The position numbers were made by a program, and so were the translations under genes. Shown piece by piece: positions 25,973 to 64,000 of a DNA stretch of 64,000 nucleotides; the stretch's first letter is position 1; each line of letters opens with the position of its first letter. The stretch is from a virus. A model generated the notes under the pieces. That model saw only the letters and a program-made list of their open reading frames with translations, did not search any database and was not told the DNA's origin. The stretch lies in IMG/VR virus record IMGVR_UViG_3300020166_000747; one strand, written 5' to 3'.

Positions 25973-27007
25973 ATGCTAAAGAGTTTCTTTGCAACGTCCG
26001 ACCGTGCATTGTATGCTTGGCTAATGCTTGCTTGGCTTCTATTCATCGGTTGGTATAACGTACAAATTCTCGTATACTATAACGCATGGAACCGAGAGTT
26101 CTATGACGCAATACAAACACTACAAGAAGAAAGATTTTGGCAACTGTTCTGGAGCTTTGATCTAGCACGGTTCATTGATTTTTTAAATTTTAATATGGAT
26201 GAAACAACAACAGTACCAAGTTTCTTAGAAATCTTGCTTATCTATGTACCAATGGCAACATATGCTACGTGGCAAACACAAAGATATACATTTGCTTGGC
26301 GCGAAGCTAATACATACTACTATCTGCGCCGTTGGGAGGGTTCAACAGCACAGATTGAAGGTGGGTCACAACGTATCCAAGAAGACTTAATGATTTTCGG
26401 TAAGACTCTACAATCACTGTTCTCAGGATTTGTAAACAAGATTTTCATTCTAGCGGCTTTCATTCCAGTACTATGGACACTAAGTGAAGGACTGCCTATC
26501 TGGAACGGTCAGATTATTCCTGGCTTCTTAGTATGGGCGGCGCTAACAATGAGTATCGGTGGTACACTACTATCATTCTTACTAGGTATCAAACTACCAG
26601 GTCTAGAATATCGTAACCAAGTAGTCGAAGCTAAGTTTCGTAAGAAGCTAGTGTATTCAGAAGATGATTTTGCAGAACGTGCAACCGCAGACTTGTTCCC
26701 AATGTTTGCGAGTGTTAAACGCAATTACTATCGTCTATTCAACTATTACATGGGCTTTGGGATATGGCAAACAGGCTTCTCACTATTAGCTGGTAACGTT
26801 GCTATCATCGTACTAGCACCAAGCTACTTTGCTCAGTTAATCACATTCGGTGTTCTTATTCAGGTGCTTAACGCATTTGGTCGAGTAGAGGGCGCATTAA
26901 CATTCTTTATCGATAGATGGACGACAATCGTTGACTTTCAATCAGTTATCAAGCGTTTGAATGAATTCAACCGCGCACTTGATGAAGCTGATAAAGAATC
27001 AGCATAA
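25973..27007 (+). CDS. SbmA/BacA-like peptide transporter
   Basis: Multi-TM; IEGGSQRIQED, KLPGLEYRNQVVEAKFRKKLV. Confidence 0.88.
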   Translation: MLKSFFATSDRALYAWLMLAWLLFIGWYNVQILVYYNAWNREFYDAIQTLQEERFWQLFWSFDLARFIDFLNFNMDETTTVPSFLEILLIYVPMATYATWQTQRYTFAWREANTYYYLRRWEGSTAQIEGGSQRIQEDLMIFGKTLQSLFSGFVNKIFILAAFIPVLWTLSEGLPIWNGQIIPGFLVWAALTMSIGGTLLSFLLGIKLPGLEYRNQVVEAKFRKKLVYSEDDFAERATADLFPMFASVKRNYYRLFNYYMGFGIWQTGFSLLAGNVAIIVLAPSYFAQLITFGVLIQVLNAFGRVEGALTFFIDRWTTIVDFQSVIKRLNEFNRALDEADKESA

Positions 27008-28315: not shown

Positions 28316-29446
28316 ATGTCTGCAAAAGTTTCAACACACGATATGGATGTTCGTTTAGTTCGCCCGAGCGATATTCGTTCAGAAATTAACTACGCTATGA
28401 ATCGCAAGCGTCCGGTCTTCATTTGGGGTCCTCCTGGGATTGGTAAATCTGAGATTGTTGACTCAATCACACAAGAGCGTTCAGGTTATATGATTGATAT
28501 GCGTCTTGCTCTTATGGAACCCACTGACTTGCGTGGTATCCCAGTGCCTAATATGAACACGGGCTTGATGGAATGGCTTCCGCCTGCTGACTTGCCTACT
28601 CAAGAACTCGCTGATCAATTCGAATGTATTGTTCTGTTTCTTGATGAAATGAATCAGGCTCCTCAATCTGTACAAGCTGCTGCTTATCAGCTAATTCTTA
28701 ATCGTCGGCTGGGTAACTATCGTCTTCCTGACAATGTTCTAATCGTTGCTGCAGGTAATCGTGAAAGTGATCGTGGCGTTGCGTATCGTATGCCTAGTCC
28801 GCTTGCTAACCGTTTTGTTCATCTTGAAATGACAACTGACTTCGAAGATTGGCAGACATGGGCGTTGCAAAACAATATAGATGCTGAGGTTGTAGGTTAC
28901 GTTACTGCTAACAAGATGGATCTGATGAACTTTGATCCTCGTACTGCATCACGTGCTTTCGCTACACCTCGTTCATGGACATTCGTTTCACAAATGCTTC
29001 CGATGGAAGGTGAGCAAATCACAGATGGTCGTTTACACGACTTGATTGCTGGTACAGTTGGTGACGGCATCGCTACTAAGTTCATGGCACACCGTGCAAT
29101 TTCAGGTAAACTTCCTAACCCAACAGATATCTTGAATGGTACTGTTAAAACACTAGGTAAAGAAGGTAGTGAAATCTCTGCAATGTTCTCACTGACTGCT
29201 TCACTTTGCTACGAACTACGTGACTTTGTTGACCGTAACGGTAAAGACAAAATGGACGAGTTGTACAAAATGGCTGACAACTTCTTCCGCTTCATGATGG
29301 ACAACTTTGAGACAGAAATGACCGTACTTGGTGGTCGTACTGCACTGAAAGTTTACAAACTTCCTCTCGAACCTCGCAAAGTTCCTTGCATCGAGGAGTT
29401 CTTCAAGAAGTATGGTAAACTAATTATCGAGGCACATAACGCTTAA
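28316..29446 (+). CDS. MoxR-like AAA+ ATPase
   Basis: GPPGIGKS, LFLDE, AAGN, PLANRF, TPRSW. Confidence 0.92.
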   Translation: MSAKVSTHDMDVRLVRPSDIRSEINYAMNRKRPVFIWGPPGIGKSEIVDSITQERSGYMIDMRLALMEPTDLRGIPVPNMNTGLMEWLPPADLPTQELADQFECIVLFLDEMNQAPQSVQAAAYQLILNRRLGNYRLPDNVLIVAAGNRESDRGVAYRMPSPLANRFVHLEMTTDFEDWQTWALQNNIDAEVVGYVTANKMDLMNFDPRTASRAFATPRSWTFVSQMLPMEGEQITDGRLHDLIAGTVGDGIATKFMAHRAISGKLPNPTDILNGTVKTLGKEGSEISAMFSLTASLCYELRDFVDRNGKDKMDELYKMADNFFRFMMDNFETEMTVLGGRTALKVYKLPLEPRKVPCIEEFFKKYGKLIIEAHNA

Positions 29447-29467: not shown

Positions 29468-29509
29468 AAAGGGAGAGGTCTTGACTTCTCCCTTTTTTTG
29501 TAGTATAAT
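29468..29509 (+). terminator. terminator overlapping a sigma70 promoter
   Basis: AAAGGGAGAGGT/ACTTCTCCCTTT stem + T run; TTGACT(29481)-N17-TATAAT(29504). Confidence 0.8.
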
Positions 29510-29516
29510 AAGAACA

Positions 29517-30884
29517 ATGATATATCAAACATTTAAACAAACTGCAAAAAGATTTCCAAATAAGGATGCGCTTATTTGCGGTGATAAAACATATACATAT
29601 TCAGAACTAGCAGCAAGTGTTGATAACCTGATTGCTGTACTTAGTACCGCGGTAATGCCAAATGAACGCATACTGTTTGCAAGTGAACGTTGGCATAACT
29701 ATGTGAGAATGGTTCTGGCATGTGATGCTCTAGGTGTCACATTTATGCCGACATATTATGATTTACCCAAAGCAGTTATTGACGATATATCCGAAGCGAG
29801 TAAACCAGACCATATCATTCTAAATGAAGATGATGCTAGTAATCTTAAACCCCATAATAAGGGATTAGTTTGCGTTAAGGGAAAGGAATACGTTTATACT
29901 GTTCTATTCACTAGCGGTACTACAGGAGCGCCTAAGGCTGTCGCACATAGCAATAAGGCGTGCTATGATGCTTGTATACAAAACATCGAAATATTCAGTA
30001 TGAATTCAAATGATGTTATTTTAGCACAACTCCCCCCGCCGACAGTAGCAGGATTATACTTATTCCCACTACCAGCACTTATGATAGGTGCTACTGTTGT
30101 TATGGAAACATTTAGCCCAAGACGTTATGCAGAATTAAATCTAACATACAAACCAACAGTTGGTATTATTGTTCCAGCAATGATTGTTGCTATGAATAGA
30201 GTGCGCAGTTGGCATGAACTTGATATGTCACACTGGCGCGAACTAAGTGTAGGCAGTACGGTCATCCCAGAAGAAATGCTAAACATGTTGTTTGACAAGG
30301 GCGTTCCTGTAATACGTGATTTGTATGGATGCACTGAAACTCACGTCCCACCGTTTACATATCTAATTGAACCAGATACTCAACACAAGTTACAATTAGA
30401 ATGCACCCCAAACTATCAATACAAACTTGATAGATATGGAGTTATGTGGATCAAAGGTTCACCTGTAATGGTAGACTATCTAAATGATGATGCAAAGTTT
30501 GACGAATATGGGTACTGGTGCACCGGAGACGTATTCGAGCGTAGACACAATAAGCTATTTTATAAATCACGCCAGAAAGATTTGATTAAAGTGAATAGTT
30601 ATAATGTATCACCAGTATCAATTGAGAATGCAATCATGGTGTTTCCCGGTGTAGAAGAAGTATGTGTGACGTTTAGAAGTAGGGAAATGTTAGGAGAATG
30701 TGAGATTGTCGCACTAGTAAAGTCTGAAAAAGAGATAAATATAATTGAGCTACAATTATCTATCAAAGATAAATTATTCCCATATGAAATCCCCAAAGAA
30801 ATTATCGTAGTAGACGAACCTTTAGTTCGTAATAGAATGGGAAAAATCCAACGAGAACAAAATAGAGAGAAATTTGTATTATGA
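29517..30884 (+). CDS. ANL-superfamily adenylate-forming (acyl-CoA ligase-like) enzyme
   Basis: FTSGTTGAPK, YGCTE, TGD, RQKDLIK, RMGKI. Confidence 0.92.
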   Translation: MIYQTFKQTAKRFPNKDALICGDKTYTYSELAASVDNLIAVLSTAVMPNERILFASERWHNYVRMVLACDALGVTFMPTYYDLPKAVIDDISEASKPDHIILNEDDASNLKPHNKGLVCVKGKEYVYTVLFTSGTTGAPKAVAHSNKACYDACIQNIEIFSMNSNDVILAQLPPPTVAGLYLFPLPALMIGATVVMETFSPRRYAELNLTYKPTVGIIVPAMIVAMNRVRSWHELDMSHWRELSVGSTVIPEEMLNMLFDKGVPVIRDLYGCTETHVPPFTYLIEPDTQHKLQLECTPNYQYKLDRYGVMWIKGSPVMVDYLNDDAKFDEYGYWCTGDVFERRHNKLFYKSRQKDLIKVNSYNVSPVSIENAIMVFPGVEEVCVTFRSREMLGECEIVALVKSEKEINIIELQLSIKDKLFPYEIPKEIIVVDEPLVRNRMGKIQREQNREKFVL

Positions 30885-32575
30885 AATCGCAAGTTAAAAA
30901 GATTGTTGTTTTAGGAGGTGGTGCCGCTGGATGGTTCACTGCTGGTTATCTAAAGCAAAAGAACCCAGAAATTGATATCACACTTATCGAAAGTCAAAAG
31001 GTAGGAATTATCGGTGTAGGCGAATCTACTATTCCACAACTAGGTGATTTCTTCCGAGAAATGGGAATCCAAGAACGTGATTGGATGGCATCTAGTAACT
31101 CAATCTACAAACTTGGAAATAAATTTGTTGGTTGGAACAAAGAAGGTAATAGACATCACGTAACAAACCATTGGCATTGCCATCAGGAAGATGAACAATA
31201 CTTTACATTTTCTTGGACACTACCAGAAAAACATATCAAAACTAGTTACTACAATCAATTGACAACTGATGATTATTATTATAATTCAGATGGTGCAAAT
31301 GGCGTAGATGATAAATGGAATGATTATTGGTTACAATCTCTACGTGATGGAACTTCAAACGCACGTGAAATGTCAGAAGATTTAATGGAAGCTACATTCT
31401 TAATGGAGAATAGAAAAGCACCATTTGATATGGATGATCATCAGATGATTGGATCTTACAATTCATATGCTTGGCATGTTGACGCAGAACGTTTTCCAGA
31501 AATCGTTAGAGATAGAGTTGCGCTACCAGCTGGTGTAAAACACATATGGGGGCATGTTGCAGATATTCAAAAAGATGAACAGGGTTACATTACTAAATTA
31601 GTACTTGAAGATGGAACAGAACATGAAGCAGATTTATTCTGTGATGCAACCGGATTCAATCGTATTCTGACCGGGACAATGGACAATGGTTGGCATGATT
31701 ACGAGCATATTTTTACACGTGATGCTATTGTTGGGCCAGTAAAATACAAAGACGTTTATAATGAAATGCGCCCGTATACACAATCGTATGCACAGGATCA
31801 TGGCTGGAACTTTATCATCCCTCTATTCAATCGCATGGGATCAGGTTACATCTTTGATAGTACAGAAATCTCACCAGAACAAGCAATGGAAGATTTTAAG
31901 AAGTATTGGGATGGATATGAATTTATCAAAGAGCCGCGTCATATCTCATGGGATTCAGGCCGTATGGAAACTCCTTGGAATAAGAACGTTGTGGGTGTTG
32001 GTATGGCAGGTGCCTTCGTTGAACCAATGGAAGCTAACTCGTTATACGTAGCACAGGCATCTATTCAACTTATTAATAGAATCATCAATCGTGCAAAAGA
32101 AGAAGATCCAGTAATTACAAATTCACAAATTCATGCATTCAATAAGAATATGTGCAAACTAGAAGATGGCATAGCTGACTTTATTTCCTATCACTTTACA
32201 CTTTCTGACCGTGAAGATTCTACATTTTGGAAAAAAGTTAAGCAGTACGGAATCGACCACAATCACAAAGAAGCAAATTGGGAACACTACCGTAGACCCG
32301 TTAACTTCTTAGGCAACGGCGTATACCCGGACCAAATGTGGGCAATGCTTGGTGTATATATGGATAAGTTTGATGACAGTGTGGAACTACACACCAAACC
32401 TGAACTAATGGAGATGGCAAAGATTAAATTTGATTACATTCATAAATCAAGTAAAGCTATTGGGAACTATGCGCCACACGCATATGATTGGCATCGTAAA
32501 TTCTTATATGAAGGTAAATCATATGAAACTGTACTTGCAGAAGCATTAGCTAAAGCGAGTAGGAATTTATATTAA
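30881..32575 (+). CDS. flavin-dependent halogenase (tryptophan halogenase family)
   Basis: GGGAAGW, GVGESTIP, catalytic-Lys region YKLGNKF, GWNFIIPL, FVEPME. Confidence 0.9.
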   Translation: MKSQVKKIVVLGGGAAGWFTAGYLKQKNPEIDITLIESQKVGIIGVGESTIPQLGDFFREMGIQERDWMASSNSIYKLGNKFVGWNKEGNRHHVTNHWHCHQEDEQYFTFSWTLPEKHIKTSYYNQLTTDDYYYNSDGANGVDDKWNDYWLQSLRDGTSNAREMSEDLMEATFLMENRKAPFDMDDHQMIGSYNSYAWHVDAERFPEIVRDRVALPAGVKHIWGHVADIQKDEQGYITKLVLEDGTEHEADLFCDATGFNRILTGTMDNGWHDYEHIFTRDAIVGPVKYKDVYNEMRPYTQSYAQDHGWNFIIPLFNRMGSGYIFDSTEISPEQAMEDFKKYWDGYEFIKEPRHISWDSGRMETPWNKNVVGVGMAGAFVEPMEANSLYVAQASIQLINRIINRAKEEDPVITNSQIHAFNKNMCKLEDGIADFISYHFTLSDREDSTFWKKVKQYGIDHNHKEANWEHYRRPVNFLGNGVYPDQMWAMLGVYMDKFDDSVELHTKPELMEMAKIKFDYIHKSSKAIGNYAPHAYDWHRKFLYEGKSYETVLAEALAKASRNLY

Positions 32576-33171
32576 TGATATTAGAAGAATTCGTAGGGGC
32601 GAATGGGCTAGAATTTAGGATAGTTGAATGTGGTTCTTCTCATATGTCCGATATCAAAGAGTTTTGCAAAGCATGTAAAGACGATGGTTTCCAAAATAAT
32701 TCTAGTTTATCTGCGTTAAAAATTGGTAAATGGGGTAGAGAAGAAAAATGGTGGGCAGTATACTTTAATGATAAGATCATTAGTTTAAGCGGCGCACATT
32801 ACTTACCACATCTGCATAAGGATTGCTATGTAATTGCTTATAGACTCGCAACGTTAGATTCATTTAAAGGTATGGCAAATGATATCATGTCTAGTCGTAT
32901 GTTAACATGTTTTGGTATGGGTAGGATGTTACCGCATATGGCTGATTGGTGCAAATTACGTGGTGCTAAATATATTGTTATGACTTTTAACTCACCCGAC
33001 AACGGATCAGATCCGAGTGGTACTATGCACAAAGCACACAGAGTTGCTCACATGGTACTACCGAAAGATAACAAATTTACATTACTGTATAGAGATATTC
33101 CACTATATGGTACCAAGCAAGATGTTTGGAAATTAAATTACCGAAACTTTATCACAATGGAAGAACTATGA
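32575..33171 (+). CDS. hypothetical, possibly GNAT-fold protein
   Basis: 198-aa ORF in the cassette; weak GNAT-like pattern. Confidence 0.5.
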   Translation: MILEEFVGANGLEFRIVECGSSHMSDIKEFCKACKDDGFQNNSSLSALKIGKWGREEKWWAVYFNDKIISLSGAHYLPHLHKDCYVIAYRLATLDSFKGMANDIMSSRMLTCFGMGRMLPHMADWCKLRGAKYIVMTFNSPDNGSDPSGTMHKAHRVAHMVLPKDNKFTLLYRDIPLYGTKQDVWKLNYRNFITMEEL

Positions 33172-34328
33172 CAATTTTTGTAGAAAACGTTTCTATGATT
33201 ACCCCATTTGGGCTTACAAATTCATCATGGGATAATATTTGTAACAATAATGTTGCATATAATACACTTACTAGATTTGATTCAAGTTCTAGTAGATACA
33301 TACGTTCTAAAGTGGCTGGTGAGGTTAACTTTAGTGCAGAAGAACACACGATTTTATCCGAAAATGATAAGGATAGATTACCAGAATATATGCAATGGGC
33401 ATTAGCGTTGACAGAGGAACTGATCGGCAATAGGGAATTGCCATTGGGACGTACTGCTGTATTAGTATCTCCGGGACTATCGATATATATCGAAAGTGTG
33501 GAAGCAAAAAATGCAAATAGAACGAATAGTTTTACTTTCTGTTCAAATATGACTGCACACAATATTAATATTAAATATGGATTTACTGGACCTAGTGCTA
33601 TGACCATGACTGCATGTAGTACCGGAATGTATAGTATTATTCTAGGGTGCATGTTATTAGAAACAGGACAAGCAGATTATGTTATTGCAGGCTCAGTAGA
33701 TAAAAGTGTTTCATTTGATTCCGTAATGCAAATGGGAAAATTAAGGGCATTGTCTACTCGGTACAATGATGCTCCGAAATTAGCAAGTAGACCATGGGAT
33801 ACAAAACGTGATGGACTTGTAATGTCCGAAGGCGGAGCATTGTTCTTATTAACAAATAAAAAAACAGAAAATACAATTTGCGAGATTGCAAGTTATGCAA
33901 TGAACAATGATGCGTATCAAGTTGTTGCGCCGCATCCCGAGGGTACATTAATTGAACGTTGTATGAGCGATGCCGTAATGAAAGCGGGACATGCACCTGA
34001 TTTAATTAACGCACATGCTACAAGTACACCTATGGGAGACTATATTGAAATTGATGCTATCAGACGCATTGGTTTAGGCGATATGCCAATAACTGCAAAC
34101 AAGTCACAGTTGGGTCATTCTATGGGTGCCGCAGGTGCAATAGAATGCGCACTTAGTGTACTTTCATTAAAAAATAATATAATCACACCATCGATAAATA
34201 TTGATAATATAGAAGACGGTTACGACATTAACTATTACAGCGAGTCTAAAACACAAGAAATAAACTCTGTAATGTGTAACAGTTTCGGCTTTGGTGGCAC
34301 AAACGCAAGTATAATCTTTAGAGAATAA
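33168..34328 (+). CDS. fabF: beta-ketoacyl synthase (FabF-like)
   Basis: TACSTG, NAHATST, KSQLGH, NSFGFGGTN (Cys-His-His). Confidence 0.92.
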   Translation: MTIFVENVSMITPFGLTNSSWDNICNNNVAYNTLTRFDSSSSRYIRSKVAGEVNFSAEEHTILSENDKDRLPEYMQWALALTEELIGNRELPLGRTAVLVSPGLSIYIESVEAKNANRTNSFTFCSNMTAHNINIKYGFTGPSAMTMTACSTGMYSIILGCMLLETGQADYVIAGSVDKSVSFDSVMQMGKLRALSTRYNDAPKLASRPWDTKRDGLVMSEGGALFLLTNKKTENTICEIASYAMNNDAYQVVAPHPEGTLIERCMSDAVMKAGHAPDLINAHATSTPMGDYIEIDAIRRIGLGDMPITANKSQLGHSMGAAGAIECALSVLSLKNNIITPSINIDNIEDGYDINYYSESKTQEINSVMCNSFGFGGTNASIIFRE

Positions 34329-34329
34329 A

Positions 34330-34962
34330 ATGCATAACACACAAAAAATACTATTCTTTCATCATCTAGCGATTATTGCCGGTCTGTTATACTATGGTTT
34401 TAATATACAATATGCAGTTCTAATACTAATCGGCTGTATCTTGTGGGCATATATCGTAGGTCATAAGGGGCTACATATATATCTTGCACACCACGATTAC
34501 AAAGATAACATAAAAAGTTATCTATATACTATAGGTGCTTTGGTCACTGGTGTTGGCTCTCCATTAATGTTTGCTGCAACACACCGACAGCACCACAAAT
34601 TTCACGACACCGAAAAAGACCCACATTCTCCAGAACATATTGGCTGGTTAAATGTGTGGTTTATGAACTACAATTCTCAACACATATCTCCTAGACTAGT
34701 TAGAGATTATCTAAAATCAAACTTTCAAAAGTTTATGAATAGACACTGGATGAAATTGACAGTTGCTATGATTGTCGTTCTGGGACTAATAGACCCGAGA
34801 ATTGTTTGCTTCATTATATCACCTTTCAGCGTCTATACTTTCCATGGTTCATCTGCAATCAATGTATTCGGACATCTTAATGGTTCGCCTAGAAACTCAA
34901 AAGAAGTCCTATTTTGGAATCCATGGGACACAAAGCATAAGGAACACCACGAATGGAAATAA
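34330..34962 (+). CDS. membrane fatty-acid desaturase (delta-9 type)
   Basis: His boxes HIYLAH, HRQHH..D...DPHSP, HKEHH; TM segments. Confidence 0.88.
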   Translation: MHNTQKILFFHHLAIIAGLLYYGFNIQYAVLILIGCILWAYIVGHKGLHIYLAHHDYKDNIKSYLYTIGALVTGVGSPLMFAATHRQHHKFHDTEKDPHSPEHIGWLNVWFMNYNSQHISPRLVRDYLKSNFQKFMNRHWMKLTVAMIVVLGLIDPRIVCFIISPFSVYTFHGSSAINVFGHLNGSPRNSKEVLFWNPWDTKHKEHHEWK

Positions 34963-34993
34963 AAAATAACGTAACGGCCTCGAAAAAGGGCGT

Positions 34994-35392
34994 TTGAACT
35001 TTCAAGATTTATTCAGAAACAACCCTAAAATATGGATGCCAATAGCAGAACTGCTAGACAATGTTTTAACGGTAGGAATAAATGATAGATTTATACGTGC
35101 AGAACGTGAATACATTTTTGCATACTTTTCAAAAGAAAACATGTGCGTCTTTTGTTATGAACACCATATAGAATTTGCATATGATTTAGGTTACAATGAT
35201 AGCATTGTTATTGAAAACTTAACTGACAGAGACGCACTAGAAAATATATTTTGGATTAGAAATATTGCATTACTAGTGAACACTGCTATAAAAGAGTACG
35301 ACATAACACAAGTTAATCCCACAGATAAAAAACTAAAAGACACTACTATTAAAGAATATGGATATAACTTCAAAAAAAGCATAGGAAGATAA
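34994..35392 (+). CDS. hypothetical protein
   Basis: 132-aa ORF, start uncertain. Confidence 0.5.
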   Translation: MNFQDLFRNNPKIWMPIAELLDNVLTVGINDRFIRAEREYIFAYFSKENMCVFCYEHHIEFAYDLGYNDSIVIENLTDRDALENIFWIRNIALLVNTAIKEYDITQVNPTDKKLKDTTIKEYGYNFKKSIGR

Positions 35393-35437: not shown

Positions 35438-35465
35438 TTGACAATATCCTCACATGTGTTATATT
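35438..35465 (+). promoter_or_regulatory. sigma70-type promoter
   Basis: AAAACTTGACA-N16-TATATT, related to the 27.8-28.3 kb modules. Confidence 0.7.
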
Positions 35466-35496
35466 AATAGAGTAGTCAGAAAAGAGGACGAATCAT

Positions 35497-36834
35497 ATGC
35501 AAATCGAACCTAAGAAAATTATAACAGAAGACGATTTCAATGCAGTACTAGATGATCTGCTTAAAGAAAACGGCATCGAAGTTGACGAAAATTCAGAAGA
35601 ACCTGTAGTGTTTGAATACACTGATACAGAAGTCAAAGAAATGATTGTATCAGGTCGTGTACGCATGTTGATTAAGCATCCGTTTTTCGGTACTCTCGCT
35701 ACACGTTTGAAGCTAGTCGAAGCTGAGTGGTGTCCTACTGCGGCTGTTGACGGTAAACACTTCTACTACAACTGTGATTTCTTTCGTACACTGACTAGCG
35801 AAGAAATTGACTTTGTTGTAGGTCATGAAGTAATGCACTGTGTGTACGAACATTGTGGTGAGTCTGGACGTTTGATGGATTACAAAGATGAAAATCGTGA
35901 TCCTAAACTATGGAATATCGCAGCCGATTACAAAGTAAATCAAGCATGTGTAGAATCTAAAATCGGTGTTATGCCTAAAATGGCTCTTTATGATAGAAAG
36001 TATTACAAACAATACACTGAGGAAATCTATGCTGACCTACTTCAACAGAAGAAAGATGGCAAGGACTTCTCAAATACAAACACACTTGATGAACACTTGT
36101 TCGGCGATGGTGAAGGTTCAGGCAAAGATGGCGAAAATGATCCTACAGGTCGTAGCGCGCCTATCAAAGTTTCTAAAGAAGAAGCTAAAGCTATCAAAGA
36201 CCAGATGAAACAAGCTGTACTACAAGCTGCACAAGCGGCGGGGGCAGGCAATCTACCAGGTGATGTTAAACGTATCATCAAGGAAATGACAGAGCCAAAG
36301 ATGGACTGGCGTGAGCATTTGAACCTTGCAGTTCAATCATCACTAAAATCTGACTTTACATGGATGCGTCAATCACGTAAATCACGTTCACTAGGTATCT
36401 ATCTGCCTGGCACTGACAATGATTATCAAGTAGATGCCGCAATCGGTATTGATGTTTCAGGTTCTATCTCGCATCAAATGATTCAAGATTTTATGGGAGA
36501 AATCTCAGGCATCATGGATCAGTTTCAGGACTTTCGTTTGCGTGTATGGACATTTGATACACAAGTGTACGCAGACTCATACAAAGAATTCACACCGATG
36601 AATGCAGATGAAATCAAAGATTACGAAATCATCGGCTGTGGCGGTACTGATTTTGAATGTAACTTTAACTTCATGGAAGAGAACGATATTGTTCCTGACA
36701 AGTTCATCATGTTCACTGATGGTTACCCATTCGGTTCATGGGGAAATGAAGCATATTGTGATACGCTATTCGTTATTCACGGGTCAGATCATATCATCCC
36801 ACCATTTGGTGACCACACTTACTACTCTAACTAA
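35497..36834 (+). CDS. metallopeptidase-like + VWA domain protein (MoxR partner)
   Basis: HEVMH; IDVSGS MIDAS, GGTDF, FTDG. Confidence 0.9.
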   Translation: MQIEPKKIITEDDFNAVLDDLLKENGIEVDENSEEPVVFEYTDTEVKEMIVSGRVRMLIKHPFFGTLATRLKLVEAEWCPTAAVDGKHFYYNCDFFRTLTSEEIDFVVGHEVMHCVYEHCGESGRLMDYKDENRDPKLWNIAADYKVNQACVESKIGVMPKMALYDRKYYKQYTEEIYADLLQQKKDGKDFSNTNTLDEHLFGDGEGSGKDGENDPTGRSAPIKVSKEEAKAIKDQMKQAVLQAAQAAGAGNLPGDVKRIIKEMTEPKMDWREHLNLAVQSSLKSDFTWMRQSRKSRSLGIYLPGTDNDYQVDAAIGIDVSGSISHQMIQDFMGEISGIMDQFQDFRLRVWTFDTQVYADSYKEFTPMNADEIKDYEIIGCGGTDFECNFNFMEENDIVPDKFIMFTDGYPFGSWGNEAYCDTLFVIHGSDHIIPPFGDHTYYSN

Positions 36835-60087: not shown

Positions 60088-61620
60088 TTATTCGTCTGTT
60101 GTAAAGACTTTAATTCCGTAATGATTAGAAAAATCTTCTGCATCTTTCAAGTCATTGACAATTGGTTGTCCTTTAATGTTCAATGATGTATTTACTAAGA
60201 TTGGACAACCAGTCTTTTCTTTAAACTTTGTTAACAACTCGTATAGACCTGGATGTGTTTCTTTGTTTACTGTCTGCACACGTGATGTTCCGTCTTTGTG
60301 TATAATAGCTGGAAACTTTTCTGGATACTTACATGTTGCAACGAACTGCATATAAGGAGATTGTGTGATGTTCTTTGGCATATCGAAGTAATCATGCACA
60401 TCCTCTTCTAAAATCATAGGAGCAAATGGTCTAAACTTCTGTCTGCGTTTGATTTCATTCATACGATCCTTAATAGTATCTCCACGAGGATCTGCTGTGA
60501 GTGTACGATTACCCAATGCTCTTGGACCAAACTCTGCTCGTCCATTTGCAATGCCAATGATATCTCCATTAAGCAATGCCGCTAATGACTTCTCTACGGG
60601 ATACGTACCTTCGATATTGTGACCTAGATATGCAGTAGTCCAGTTAATTCTATTCTTAAAGAATTTTTGTGAAGCACCAATACAACTACCAGCATCACCC
60701 GGGTTTGGCATAATCCATACATTATCATAGTTGTGCGTGATGTTACTATTAGCACTACAGTTAAGTGCGCAACCTCCCATGATAACTAGATTTTTACTCT
60801 TACATACTTTTCTAGCATGTGAGATTATATTATCAAGTATCATTTCATAAACTTTCTGTGTCGCTGCCGCTAAATCAAATAAGTCTTGTTCGATCGTTAG
60901 TTCTGGTAGTAACCACTTACAACCCCTATGTAAATTTTTTCTAAAAGATACAATCGTAAAAAATTCACCGCTGTGGTCATTTAGTTTAATACCAATCTCA
61001 TCTAATAAATGAGATACTAAAGTTTTACCTTGATATTCTCTATTTGGATTACCATATGCTGCCATGCCCATGAGAATGTATTCGTCTTCCTGTGGCTTTA
61101 GTCCTAAACGCTGTGTCATTGCACTATAGAATAGCCCAACTGAATTAGGATAAGACTGTTCGTACTCTCTTAATAGCGTATCATTCACACCATTCCAAAT
61201 AGTAAGAGTTTCAAATTCTCCCATACTATCGATGACAACAACTGCGGCATCATCAAATCCACTAGTGAAATAGCCACTAGCAGCATGTGTGTAATGATGC
61301 GATTGATATTTAATCTTAATACCATTAAGTTCAGGGAAGTTCTTCAAATACCGTTTTGGCATTTCTTCTTTGTCAAATGCTAAACTATATTGTCTAGCAG
61401 TGAATTGTCTAAACTTCTTTAGTAATGGTCTTTCATACCACGCAATAAAATCTGGCTTACCATACGATAGTGCCTCTTGAATGATTTCATCATTCAGAAG
61501 CGGGTCATTTTTAATCTTAGAATAGCGTTCACTATGACTAGCAAATAGAATTTCGCCGTCTTTAATAACACTAACTGCGGCATCATGGTTAAGTGCGCCA
61601 GATATACCTAGTACAATCAT
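60088..61620 (-). CDS. O-carbamoyltransferase (NodU/CmcH/TobZ family)
   Basis: HDAA, ERYS..K, HHYTHA, GGCALN, PGDAG, EFGPRALGNR, RPFAP, DGTSRVQTV, NTSLN. Confidence 0.95.
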   Translation of the reverse strand: MIVLGISGALNHDAAVSVIKDGEILFASHSERYSKIKNDPLLNDEIIQEALSYGKPDFIAWYERPLLKKFRQFTARQYSLAFDKEEMPKRYLKNFPELNGIKIKYQSHHYTHAASGYFTSGFDDAAVVVIDSMGEFETLTIWNGVNDTLLREYEQSYPNSVGLFYSAMTQRLGLKPQEDEYILMGMAAYGNPNREYQGKTLVSHLLDEIGIKLNDHSGEFFTIVSFRKNLHRGCKWLLPELTIEQDLFDLAAATQKVYEMILDNIISHARKVCKSKNLVIMGGCALNCSANSNITHNYDNVWIMPNPGDAGSCIGASQKFFKNRINWTTAYLGHNIEGTYPVEKSLAALLNGDIIGIANGRAEFGPRALGNRTLTADPRGDTIKDRMNEIKRRQKFRPFAPMILEEDVHDYFDMPKNITQSPYMQFVATCKYPEKFPAIIHKDGTSRVQTVNKETHPGLYELLTKFKEKTGCPILVNTSLNIKGQPIVNDLKDAEDFSNHYGIKVFTTDE

Positions 61621-63104: not shown

Positions 63105-63129
63105 GTTAAATCCTGCTATAATTTTATTT

Positions 63130-63145
63130 GATAAATATATTTATG
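63130..63145. promoter_or_regulatory. back-to-back late promoters
   Basis: Palindrome ATAAATATATTTAT (63131-63144) gives GATAAATA (+) and CATAAATA (-). Confidence 0.6.
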
Positions 63146-64000
63146 CAAACAAAATCATTAAATTATTATGAGGTGATACCAGAAGAAAACACATTTGTGG
63201 ATATTATGGTAGATATTACGCACAAATGTAATATGACATGTAAGAACTGTTATATTCCAAATCGTGATGTTCCCGATATGGATTTAGAAAAATATAGAGA
63301 TTTTATTTCAAGACTCAAAGGTAGGTGTATGATTAGAATCGTAGGTGCTGAACCGACGATGAATCCACTGTGCGAAGAGTATATTAAAATTGCGTTTGAG
63401 TATGGACATAGATGCATCGTATTAACCAATGGATTAAGATTAGCTCATAAGAATTATGTCGATAAACTACATACTTCTGGATTAAGACATATATATTTGA
63501 GTCTGAATGGTGTAAACAACGATGACTGGTATGTAGAAATAGACGAAATGCGATGTGCTACTAAGAAAATTGCGGCACTGCGTAATATCAGAGATAGAAA
63601 ATTTATCTTAGATATTGGTACTATTATTGTCCCGGATGTAAACGAAGACGCGCCAAGAGCGTTACTAGAGTTATTTGATCAAGAGAATGTAAAGAATGTT
63701 CTAATGCGAATTAAGAATGTAGGCCAATTAGGTCGCTTTCAGACAGAAGCAGATGACAATGTAAAAATGGATCAACTAGTAACCTTATGCTCAGAACAAA
63801 TGGGAGTGAGTGCAGACTATATAAATAGTTTCAGAGATAAAAAATTATACGGTGTGTATGAAGAAAAGAATTCAATATTATTCCCATTACGTGAAGGGAA
63901 TACTATTCTGAATAGAGGAAGATGGGTCAAGATAACAAACTGGGATACTGATAATGAAAGCGGTATTCCAGATCCTAACTCACAAAGACGTGGGCGTGTT
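63143..64000 (+). CDS. radical SAM protein (partial, runs off the window)
   Basis: Read by hand: MQTKSLNYY...ITHKCNMTCKNCY...GAEPT...TNG. Confidence 0.9.
   Translation, partial: MQTKSLNYYEVIPEENTFVDIMVDITHKCNMTCKNCYIPNRDVPDMDLEKYRDFISRLKGRCMIRIVGAEPTMNPLCEEYIKIAFEYGHRCIVLTNGLRLAHKNYVDKLHTSGLRHIYLSLNGVNNDDWYVEIDEMRCATKKIAALRNIRDRKFILDIGTIIVPDVNEDAPRALLELFDQENVKNVLMRIKNVGQLGRFQTEADDNVKMDQLVTLCSEQMGVSADYINSFRDKKLYGVYEEKNSILFPLREGNTILNRGRWVKITNWDTDNESGIPDPNSQRRGRV

Follow-up and report, generated by a model that had tools for sequence, protein, structure and literature searches.

As a rule, an auxiliary gene of a phage codes for one enzyme that boosts the metabolism of its host. In bacteria, the jamaicamide starter set comprises the acyl-acyl carrier protein (ACP) synthetase JamA, the membrane desaturase/acetylenase JamB and the ACP JamC. 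The flavin halogenase JamD installs bromine on terminal alkynes (PMC12645471). In altemicidin biosynthesis, the order in which the adenylating enzyme SbzL, the carrier protein SbzG and the carrier-protein-dependent GNAT SbzI act has been established experimentally (PMC11685415). Other carrier-protein-dependent GNATs, such as FeeM, GdvG and the selidamide GNATs, can transfer long acyl groups from ACP onto amine acceptors (PMC8784127). Among viruses, a survey of jumbo phages predicted a different, cyanophage cluster that contains a halogenase and a carbamoyltransferase (PMC7824862). Here, we analyzed 64,000 nucleotides of viral DNA (IMG/VR record IMGVR_UViG_3300020166_000747; this whole stretch is called the window below), in which six genes on the plus strand at positions 29517-35392 code for an ANL-superfamily adenylating enzyme (ANL), a flavin-dependent halogenase (FDH), a GNAT-fold protein, a FabF-like beta-ketoacyl synthase (ketosynthase, KS), a membrane desaturase and a small CxxC..HH protein. 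No paper describing this cassette was found in our literature search. On balance, we favor the reading that these genes form an accessory operon ("moron") with its own promoter, located between an AAA and a DUF2201 gene, which would encode a small carrier-protein-dependent acyl pathway.

The locus resembles the SbzL/SbzG/SbzI set in that a stand-alone ANL and a stand-alone GNAT are the constant core of the phage island, and in that phosphopantetheinyl carriers and AcpS are encoded by the same phage lineage. On the other hand, the phage operon lacks a carrier-protein gene, adds KS, halogenase and desaturases, and has a GNAT without a Pfam match or any detectable sequence relationship to that of the altemicidin pathway. 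Compared by gene content, the cassette is also similar to JamABCD in that it combines a ketosynthase with a ligase, a membrane di-iron desaturase and a flavin halogenase that would feed it, and relatives with two desaturases resemble alkene/alkyne-forming sets. However, the phage ACP is not adjacent and the desaturase is optional and truncated in the window, so that the locus does not have the makeup of a starter cassette; moreover, the phage KS is a free FabF-like enzyme rather than a polyketide synthase (PKS) module, and a GNAT is present. New here are the polymorphism of empty sites and reduced islands, the portable hairpin-promoter, the ANL-GNAT fusion, the ACP co-occurrence count, the mosaic within the cassette and the fold confirmation of a short desaturase.

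An Insertable Cassette with a Constant Core

To survey the locus, we used the flanking AAA gene as an anchor, which yielded 488 related IMG/VR stretches, and 80 loci were examined. Among close relatives (AAA identity of at least 79% and enough sequence to classify), 29 contain ANL, halogenase, GNAT and KS in that order, some of them together with desaturases, the site between the AAA and DUF2201 genes is empty in 17, and 7 carry a reduced island at the cassette site. An earlier note on this DNA had named independent scattering of the genes in relatives as the outcome that would refute a joint pathway; instead, the block is found in 29 contigs and is wholly absent from 17. Because of these full, empty and reduced sites, the cassette is best described as an insertable unit and not as scattered genes. 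Halogenase and KS were found only inside the block, and none of the inspected loci has a KS without ANL, halogenase and GNAT. Thus, the cassette is a transcription unit that can be inserted, its constant core being the ligase and the GNAT.

Five of the seven reduced islands contain an ANL without the C domain (341-361 aa) followed directly by a divergent GNAT (25-27% identity); located 3' of the GNAT, depending on the locus, are a DUF6356 protein and, next to it, a class IV aminotransferase or a second AMP-binding fragment. In the other two, a truncated ANL lies beside different genes or a halogenase remnant. In addition, one metagenomic protein fuses the ANL N-domain to a GNAT resembling the 198-aa protein of the window. 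The pairing of ligase and GNAT is supported by these five islands together with the natural fusion, and the constancy of the pair points to acyl transfer, rather than lipid desaturation, as the likely core step. Truncated ANLs of the reduced-island kind form about 25 clusters in metagenomes and are therefore probably functional.

Several side observations concern these islands. In the alternative islands (L072:10266-13635, L084:10178-12887, L103, L065 and L089), the second AMP-binding fragment, where present, has 227 aa and is accompanied by a 266-aa protein without an assigned family. A conserved 266-270-aa protein without a family match is located 3' of the KS in desaturase-less cassettes (L011-L020, approximately 13.5-14.4 kb) and also ends reduced islands (L072:12835-13635); it is not present at this position in the window. 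A halogenase remnant of 74 residues (53% identity) was detected outside any open reading frame beside a truncated ANL (L078:11752-11973), and this locus looks like a decaying cassette.

Each core enzyme clade is known only from metagenomic or uncultured-virus sequences, with 27-37% identity to the nearest outside proteins. A recent capture of a bacterial gene cluster was considered and rejected, the core enzymes being at most 37% identical to sequences outside their own clades. The flanks are more conserved than the cassette proteins (mean pairwise identity 0.76-0.87 vs. 0.51-0.68), of which the GNAT diverges fastest, and the pairwise-identity matrices of the four core proteins correlate with one another (r 0.63-0.83). 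Catalytic residues have been kept across this deep divergence. Between the window and its closest relative, identity is 99% for AAA, 95% for ANL, 79% for the halogenase, 46% for GNAT, 67% for KS and 91% for DUF2201, a mosaic gradient which indicates recombination inside the cassette.

Operon Layout, Promoter and Boundaries

The genes of the cassette are tightly coupled, as had been claimed from the sequence: ANL and halogenase share an ATGA overlap, halogenase and GNAT a TAATG overlap, and GNAT and KS another ATGA overlap, and a 1-nt gap separates KS from the desaturase. All five genes named in the earlier note proved correct in place and identity, including the GNAT, which had been a guess and whose fold was confirmed by an AlphaFold2 (AF2) model. 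A sixth gene (35036-35392) lies in the same interval in addition to those five.

The sigma-70-type promoter that had been proposed for the cassette is present at 29481-29509 on the plus strand (TTGACT at 29481-86, a 17-nt spacer and TATAAT at 29504-09; 11 of 12 consensus matches), with the ATG of the ANL gene 7 nt past the -10 box. Promoter-like sites as a class are not enriched in the region (42 found vs. 43.1 expected from shuffles). This particular site is considered more than chance because its position and sequence are kept in all 12 distinct relatives inspected. The short distance between the -10 box and the ATG, 4-7 nt in 11 of the 12 relatives, suggests that the first cistron is probably read from a leaderless mRNA.

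A terminator-like hairpin with a 12-pair stem and a T-run (29468-29495, plus strand) follows the AAA gene, and the -35 box of the cassette promoter sits in the loop and 3' arm of this hairpin. The same arrangement was found in relatives. In one of them (L055:10150-10215), the hairpin-promoter module drives an unrelated 210-aa gene with a normal Shine-Dalgarno (SD) sequence. The combination of a hairpin terminator with an embedded -35 box, a T-run spacer and a -10 box appears to behave as a portable module.

On the left, the cassette is bounded by a conserved backbone gene for an AAA_5 ATPase (MoxR/CobS-like, 28316-29446, plus strand). On the right is the DUF2201 gene (metallopeptidase-like and VWA-like, 35497-36834, plus strand), which is usually the direct neighbor of the AAA gene and whose promoter (35438-35465, plus strand) marks the 3' boundary of the inserted cassette. 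In empty sites, the AAA terminator runs straight into the DUF2201 promoter, leader and SD sequence, the same elements that occupy 35438-35496 of the window. The DUF2201 leader (35466-35499 of the window; empty sites L047, L054 and L099) ends with ...AGGACGAATCA(T/C)ATG, and a conserved GANTC-containing box is located directly at the DUF2201 start codon in the window and in cassette-less relatives.

The Adenylating Enzyme and the GNAT-Fold Protein

The first gene (29517-30884, plus strand) encodes a 455-aa ANL-superfamily protein matching PF00501 (142.8 bits) and the AMP-binding C-terminal family PF13193 (26.9 bits). It contains the motifs TSGTTGAPK (A3), YGCTE (A5), TGD (A7) and GK (A10). In its relatives, TGD and GK are matched throughout and YGCTE in all except L006, and the A3 pattern is unmatched in 5 of 15. 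The protein is predicted to be an acyl/aryl-CoA or acyl-carrier-protein ligase. Its clade is phage-only, with at least 49% identity inside and then at most 29% to cellular ligases. Judged from sequence, the protein covers less than the length of the Pfam profile, and this shortness argues against an insertion between the N and C domains of the type found in fatty acyl-AMP ligases.

The third gene (32575-33171, plus strand) encodes a 198-aa member of a rare, unnamed family. No Pfam or NCBIfam match was obtained, even at an E-value of 10. An AF2 model built from 13 homologs reached a pLDDT of 88 and a pTM of 0.86. Foldseek assigned this model a probability of 1.0 to GNATs, with 344 matches at E-values up to 1e-3, and an all-against-all structural search (VIA) gave a Z-score of 12.1, with 185 chains at Z of at least 8. 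Atlas neighbors of the protein carry Acetyltransf_1. Based on the model, the protein has a GNAT fold, and we propose that it is an acyl transferase. It shares this fold with FeeM (2g0b), GdvG of the goadvionins and the selidamide GNATs (PMC8784127). FeeM is among the matches (Z 10.7), as is the protein acetyltransferase PAT (Z 11.8), but these form a broad tie in which no subfamily is singled out, and the match to FeeM is no better than that to dozens of ordinary acetyltransferases. Unlike FeeM-type pathways, the phage cassette has no precursor peptide or amino-acid-activating gene. A LuxI-type synthase was also considered for this protein; the fold searches did not point to one, though they leave this identity possible.

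The region corresponding to the CoA-binding Q/RxxGxG/A motif after strand 4 reads YRGMAS in relatives and FKGMAN in the window and lies in a low-confidence loop of the model; other conserved residues (NN, R and Q..W) are family-specific. The family comprises 143 clusters at 50% identity among 1.84 billion proteins, and the ten clusters that were looked up all derive from metagenomic or run-derived assemblies without informative names. When distant family members were used as queries, nothing was found in the metagenome and IMG/VR scans. GNAT genes of this family also occur away from any ligase in two more distant phages (AAA identity 57%; L126:3634-5760 and L127:5947-8498), where their neighbors are a weak PP-loop ATPase match or radical-SAM genes.

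The Flavin Halogenase

The second gene (30881-32575, plus strand) encodes a 564-aa flavin-dependent halogenase of the tryptophan-halogenase family (PF04820, 316.7 bits; cut-off 21). The closest solved structures are all true halogenases: matches to halogenases in the PDB have E-values of 1e-46 to 1e-62, with Thal, PrnA and RebH at 1e-57 to 1e-62. The FAD-binding GxGxxG motif is GGGAAG at residues 12-17 (GGG[AIV][AGN]G in the clade). Alignment with Thal bore out the claim that the catalytic motifs are intact and that one motif is altered to WNFIIP. K77, within SIYKLGNKF, aligns with ASYKMAVKF of Thal and is equivalent to K79 of PrnA, FVEPMEA aligns with FVEPLES of Thal (equivalent to E346 of PrnA), and WNFIIP at residue 309 aligns with WxWxIP of Thal, a motif which the protein does not contain in its canonical form. 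An insertion relative to Thal, at approximately residues 90-146, is not covered by the alignment.

Among 20 clade members, the EPME core is identical in all and the lysine-motif pattern is matched in 19, the exception being L010, whose lysine region was not inspected. The clade motif is W-x-F-[IV]-I-[P/S/T]. Some active FDHs, such as Bmp5, are known to lack WxWxIP or its variants (PMC8407142). Like VirX1 (6qgm) and its cyanophage and pelagiphage homologs (PMC8407142), the protein is a tryptophan-halogenase-family FDH with GxGxxG, the catalytic lysine and the glutamate, and it matches VirX1 with an E-value of 3.9e-54. It differs from the cyanophage halogenases in its identity of approximately 29%, its own clade (at least 43% identity inside, then approximately 34% outside) and its WxFxI[PST] motif. 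In addition, the window copy is part of a multi-enzyme operon, whereas the cyanophage copies lie beside 2OG oxygenases.

The Ketosynthase, the Desaturase and a Small Redox-Like Protein

The fourth gene encodes a FabF-like beta-ketoacyl synthase of 386 aa (33168-34328, plus strand; PF00109, 88.1 bits; PF02801, 86.8 bits). ATG 33168 is more likely to be its start than TTG 33126, because it gives the ATGA overlap that is also found in relatives. The Cys-His-His triad is located in ACSTG, HATST and GHS and is conserved in 16 of 16 sequences, some of which have conservative variants (ACSSG, HGTST, HATGT and GH[L/M/C]). Consistent with bacterial FabF, the protein has a thiolase fold, this triad, a lysine and the C-terminal GFGG motif, and its best PDB matches are FabF enzymes (E-value 3e-63). 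It is predicted to be of the decarboxylating, chain-extending type. On the other hand, its score against the fabF model TIGR03150 (277.2 bits) is below the cut-off of 493.75, which places it outside the housekeeping FabF equivalog. Identity within its clade is at least 56% and then drops to 32-37% with cellular FabF, from which it also differs in being approximately 25-30 residues shorter and in being linked to ANL, halogenase and GNAT instead of fab genes.

The fifth gene (34330-34962, plus strand) encodes a 210-aa membrane di-iron desaturase of the stearoyl-CoA desaturase (SCD) type, which was assigned on the basis of its His boxes and fold. The FA_desaturase score of 22.8 bits is below the Pfam cut-off of 29.7, and a paralogous desaturase of a relative scores 39.6 bits on PF00487. 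The boxes are HIYLAH, HRQHH and HKEHH, and their histidines are invariant in an alignment of 11 sequences (the window and 10 paralogs). With the AF2 model as query, the only matches at E-values below 1e-3 were SCD1 entries (4zyo, 4ymk and 6wf2; TMq 0.65-0.71), the next match having an E-value of 0.35. The window protein ends directly past the third His box and is shorter than the copies of its relatives. Cassettes contain zero, one or two desaturase genes, placed before or after the GNAT gene, and approximately half of the full cassettes have none.

The last gene (35036-35392, plus strand; alternative start TTG 34994) encodes a small CxxC..HH protein which is weakly similar to AhpD and carboxymuconolactone decarboxylase (CMD). 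It contains CVFCYEHH, matches TIGR04030 weakly (E-value 0.0012, 19 bits), has an Atlas score of 0.91 to CMD clusters and has no Pfam match. This AhpD-like gene is present only in the closest relatives of the window (L001-L003).

Carrier Proteins

No ACP gene was detected in the 64-kb window. The idea that a distal ACP might serve the pathway gained support from relatives: in the closest one, the radical-SAM gene that is cut by the 3' end of the window is followed at once by an ACP gene, and the window ACP should therefore, by synteny, lie just past base 64000. A genome-wide search for ACP and phosphopantetheinyl transferase, as had been suggested, revealed three ACPs and an AcpS-type transferase in the complete 342.6-kb relative. 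AcpS was also found in one other cassette-bearing record. Of ten records with the cassette, nine encode an ACP, whereas none of ten without it does (Fisher's exact test, approximately 1e-4, hand calculation), a count which rests on related, fragmentary records and is suggestive of a link between ACP and cassette.

A radical-SAM gene, an ACP gene and one or two genes for proteins of approximately 330-340 aa form a recurring unit, which is found twice in the complete relative (loci: window 63128-64000, open at the 3' end; L037:8239-11411; L040:7062-9296). In L039:7766-8364 (G001, approximately 33.8-34.4 kb), a stand-alone ACP gene is located directly 3' of IscA-like and nitroreductase-like genes, and a MotA/ExbB-like gene lies 3' of this ACP. 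Neither FabD nor a Flavin_Reduct protein was found in the complete relative, which fits a reliance of the pathway on the host. The predicted KS product would either stay a beta-keto acyl group or be processed by host enzymes.

Proposed Pathway and Alternative Explanations

In the accessory pathway that we favor, the ANL would adenylate a carboxylic acid and load it onto a phosphopantetheinyl carrier, which may be a host ACP or CoA, or else a phage ACP whose gene lies outside the cassette and which the phage AcpS would activate. The KS would extend the chain with host malonyl-ACP, and the SCD-type desaturase, where present, would add unsaturation. The halogenase, supplied with FADH2 by a host reductase, may halogenate the acyl chain or the acceptor at an electron-rich carbon, and the GNAT-fold protein could then move the acyl group to an amine acceptor. 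In the infected cell, the expected outcome would be a halogenated acyl amide or lipid that is possibly also unsaturated; signaling, toxicity, anti-competitor action and envelope modification are candidate roles for it.

Several points weigh against such a pathway. There is no ACP inside or beside the cassette; the ACPs found elsewhere adjoin radical-SAM or Fe-S (IscA-like) genes and may serve other pathways, and the records behind the co-occurrence count are related and fragmentary. Ketoreductase, dehydratase and thioesterase genes are absent from the cassette. The halogenase lacks the canonical second tryptophan of WxWxIP, and many relatives also lack the proline. The desaturase is optional, with a C-terminally truncated copy in the window. 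In contigs from RNA libraries, coverage of the entire region is as even as in DNA, with no separable transcript signal, and the order of the steps given above is our inference.

One alternative is that the phage remodels host lipids, with KS, desaturase and ligase as separate auxiliary metabolic genes that tune membrane fatty acids during infection and with halogenase and GNAT as unrelated neighbors; the roles assigned would be elongation of the FabF type, desaturation of the Delta9 type and reactivation of fatty acids. The KS is indeed nearest to housekeeping FabF, the desaturases have the classic HRxxxH/HRxHH/HNNHH boxes of the Delta9 type, a related small desaturase occurs in Pelagibacter phage Mosig without the other cassette genes, and a gene for an SbmA/BacA-like membrane protein is located 2.5 kb upstream. 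However, the start and stop codons overlap at gene junctions, halogenase and KS are confined to the block, where every inspected KS is accompanied by ANL, halogenase and GNAT, the KS clade is shorter than cellular FabF and shares only 32-37% identity with it, and the desaturase is the least constant member. We therefore regard independent lipid remodeling as unlikely. In curacin-type PKSs, GNAT-like loading domains decarboxylate malonyl-ACP, and the GNAT-fold protein might in the same way initiate chains as a malonyl-ACP decarboxylase that primes the KS, giving a free or ACP-bound halogenated (keto)acid and not an amide. The GNAT gene lies directly 5' of the KS gene and overlaps it in the window and most relatives, polyketide-initiating GNAT-fold decarboxylases are known (Skiba et al. 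2020, as cited in PMC11685415), and FabB and FabF accept acetyl-ACP as a primer (PMC8666670). Yet five reduced islands keep ANL and GNAT without a KS, the sole natural fusion joins GNAT to ANL and not to KS, and a desaturase gene separates GNAT from KS in L005, L006, L008 and L010. MadA was dropped as a precedent, its decarboxylase being the hot-dog domain rather than the GNAT domain (PMC8666670), and the fold searches singled out no GNAT of a PKS loading domain, although this does not rule such a GNAT out. Chain priming by the GNAT thus seems a little less probable still.

The variant motif of the halogenase raises the question of whether this enzyme acts instead as a flavin monooxygenase or hydroxylase in which the motif presumed to separate substrate from flavin has degraded, so that the product would be oxygenated and not halogenated. 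The second tryptophan of WxWxIP is phenylalanine in all 20 clade members inspected, the proline is serine or threonine in 10 of the 20, and the Ser and Gly positions of the Fx.Px.Sx.G motif are Ala and Ser (FVEPMEANS). Replacement of Trp by Phe is nevertheless conservative, the catalytic lysine (K79 equivalent) and the glutamate of EPxE are invariant in the clade, the closest solved structures all belong to true halogenases, active FDHs without WxWxIP such as Bmp5 exist (PMC8407142), and the habitat is halide-rich seawater. Loss of halogenation is in our view quite improbable. The least probable of these alternatives is the modification of a macromolecule, for which Mom-type GNAT acylation of DNA and the predicted cyanophage decoration clusters provide models: the acyl group would be placed onto phage DNA bases, a virion or host protein, or lipopolysaccharide or capsule, with no diffusible metabolite. 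Jumbo phages are described as having GNAT-based systems for base acylation, and capsular polysaccharide may be decorated by a cyanophage cluster that includes a halogenase (PMC7824862). Many DNA-modification, glycosyl-, carbamoyl- and radical-SAM genes are present in this phage, and the tied best fold matches include the GNAT PAT in complex with an ANL C-domain (4u5y; Z 11.8). However, those matches tie broadly across GNATs and 4u5y is not specific; KS, membrane desaturases and an enzyme of the tryptophan-halogenase type represent lipid or small-molecule chemistry without precedent in nucleic-acid modification; and closely related phages do without the cassette, implying that it is not needed for virion or DNA integrity.

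Extending the accessory-operon reading, it is conceivable, with somewhat less confidence than the operon itself, that giant marine phages run a natural-product pathway of their own. Evolved in the virus, it would be a hybrid that joins fatty-acid/polyketide chemistry (ligase, KS and desaturase) to halogenation and GNAT acyl transfer, would rely on ACP and AcpS encoded by the phage, and would yield a halogenated acyl amide or a beta-keto lipid in infected cells. Equally tentatively, the fast-evolving, recombining GNAT/KS half might diversify this product between lineages; a signal, a toxin aimed at competitors or grazers, and an anti-defense compound are examples of what it could be. If true, such a conserved, multi-enzyme, self-promoted viral pathway, equipped with a ketosynthase, a halogenase and its own acyl-transfer protein, would mean that viruses make their own specialized metabolites. 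The product, if made, could matter for ocean halogen chemistry and for interactions among phage, host and competitors. Twelve metagenome studies (2014-2025), covering marine, seawater and estuary samples, contain DNA nearly identical to the region, and relevance at the ocean scale is possible because of this recurrence. The variant-motif halogenase, the compact ligase, the free-standing KS and the unnamed GNAT family also offer starting points for biocatalysis, and the natural cassette-plus, cassette-minus and reduced variants constitute a ready comparative test.

Phage Background and Distribution

The window encodes a T4-type DNA polymerase and is phage DNA. Its best isolate matches are jumbo phages at approximately 42-48% amino-acid identity (Sinorhizobium phage Phosso, Agrobacterium phage Atu_ph07 and the Rak2-like group), and we assign the window to a T4-like marine jumbo phage. 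Searches of the cassette DNA against isolate phage genomes (megablast) and of an exact 40-mer against IMG/VR gave no match. IMG/VR contains many uncultured relatives, including one complete genome of 342.6 kb with terminal repeats.

The region is present in two marine metatranscriptome runs as evenly covered contigs with flat depth over 19 kb, mirroring the DNA run, and carry-over of DNA cannot be excluded for them; neither a transcription start site nor a transcript of the cassette could be read from these contigs. A third metatranscriptome study yielded only short, low-depth fragments, over the ANL and halogenase genes.

Two further features of the window were noted. The SbmA/BacA-like gene 5' of the cassette (25973-27007; Pfam, 259 bits), which encodes an inner-membrane transporter, is 96-97% identical in the closest relatives and approximately 33% identical in others. 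A minus-strand block at 40371-63104 contains several radical-SAM genes, a 1506-aa protein without a family match, a DUF6071 protein and, at 60088-61620, a Nol-like carbamoyltransferase; judged from this gene content, it is predicted to be a second, larger modification or biosynthesis region.

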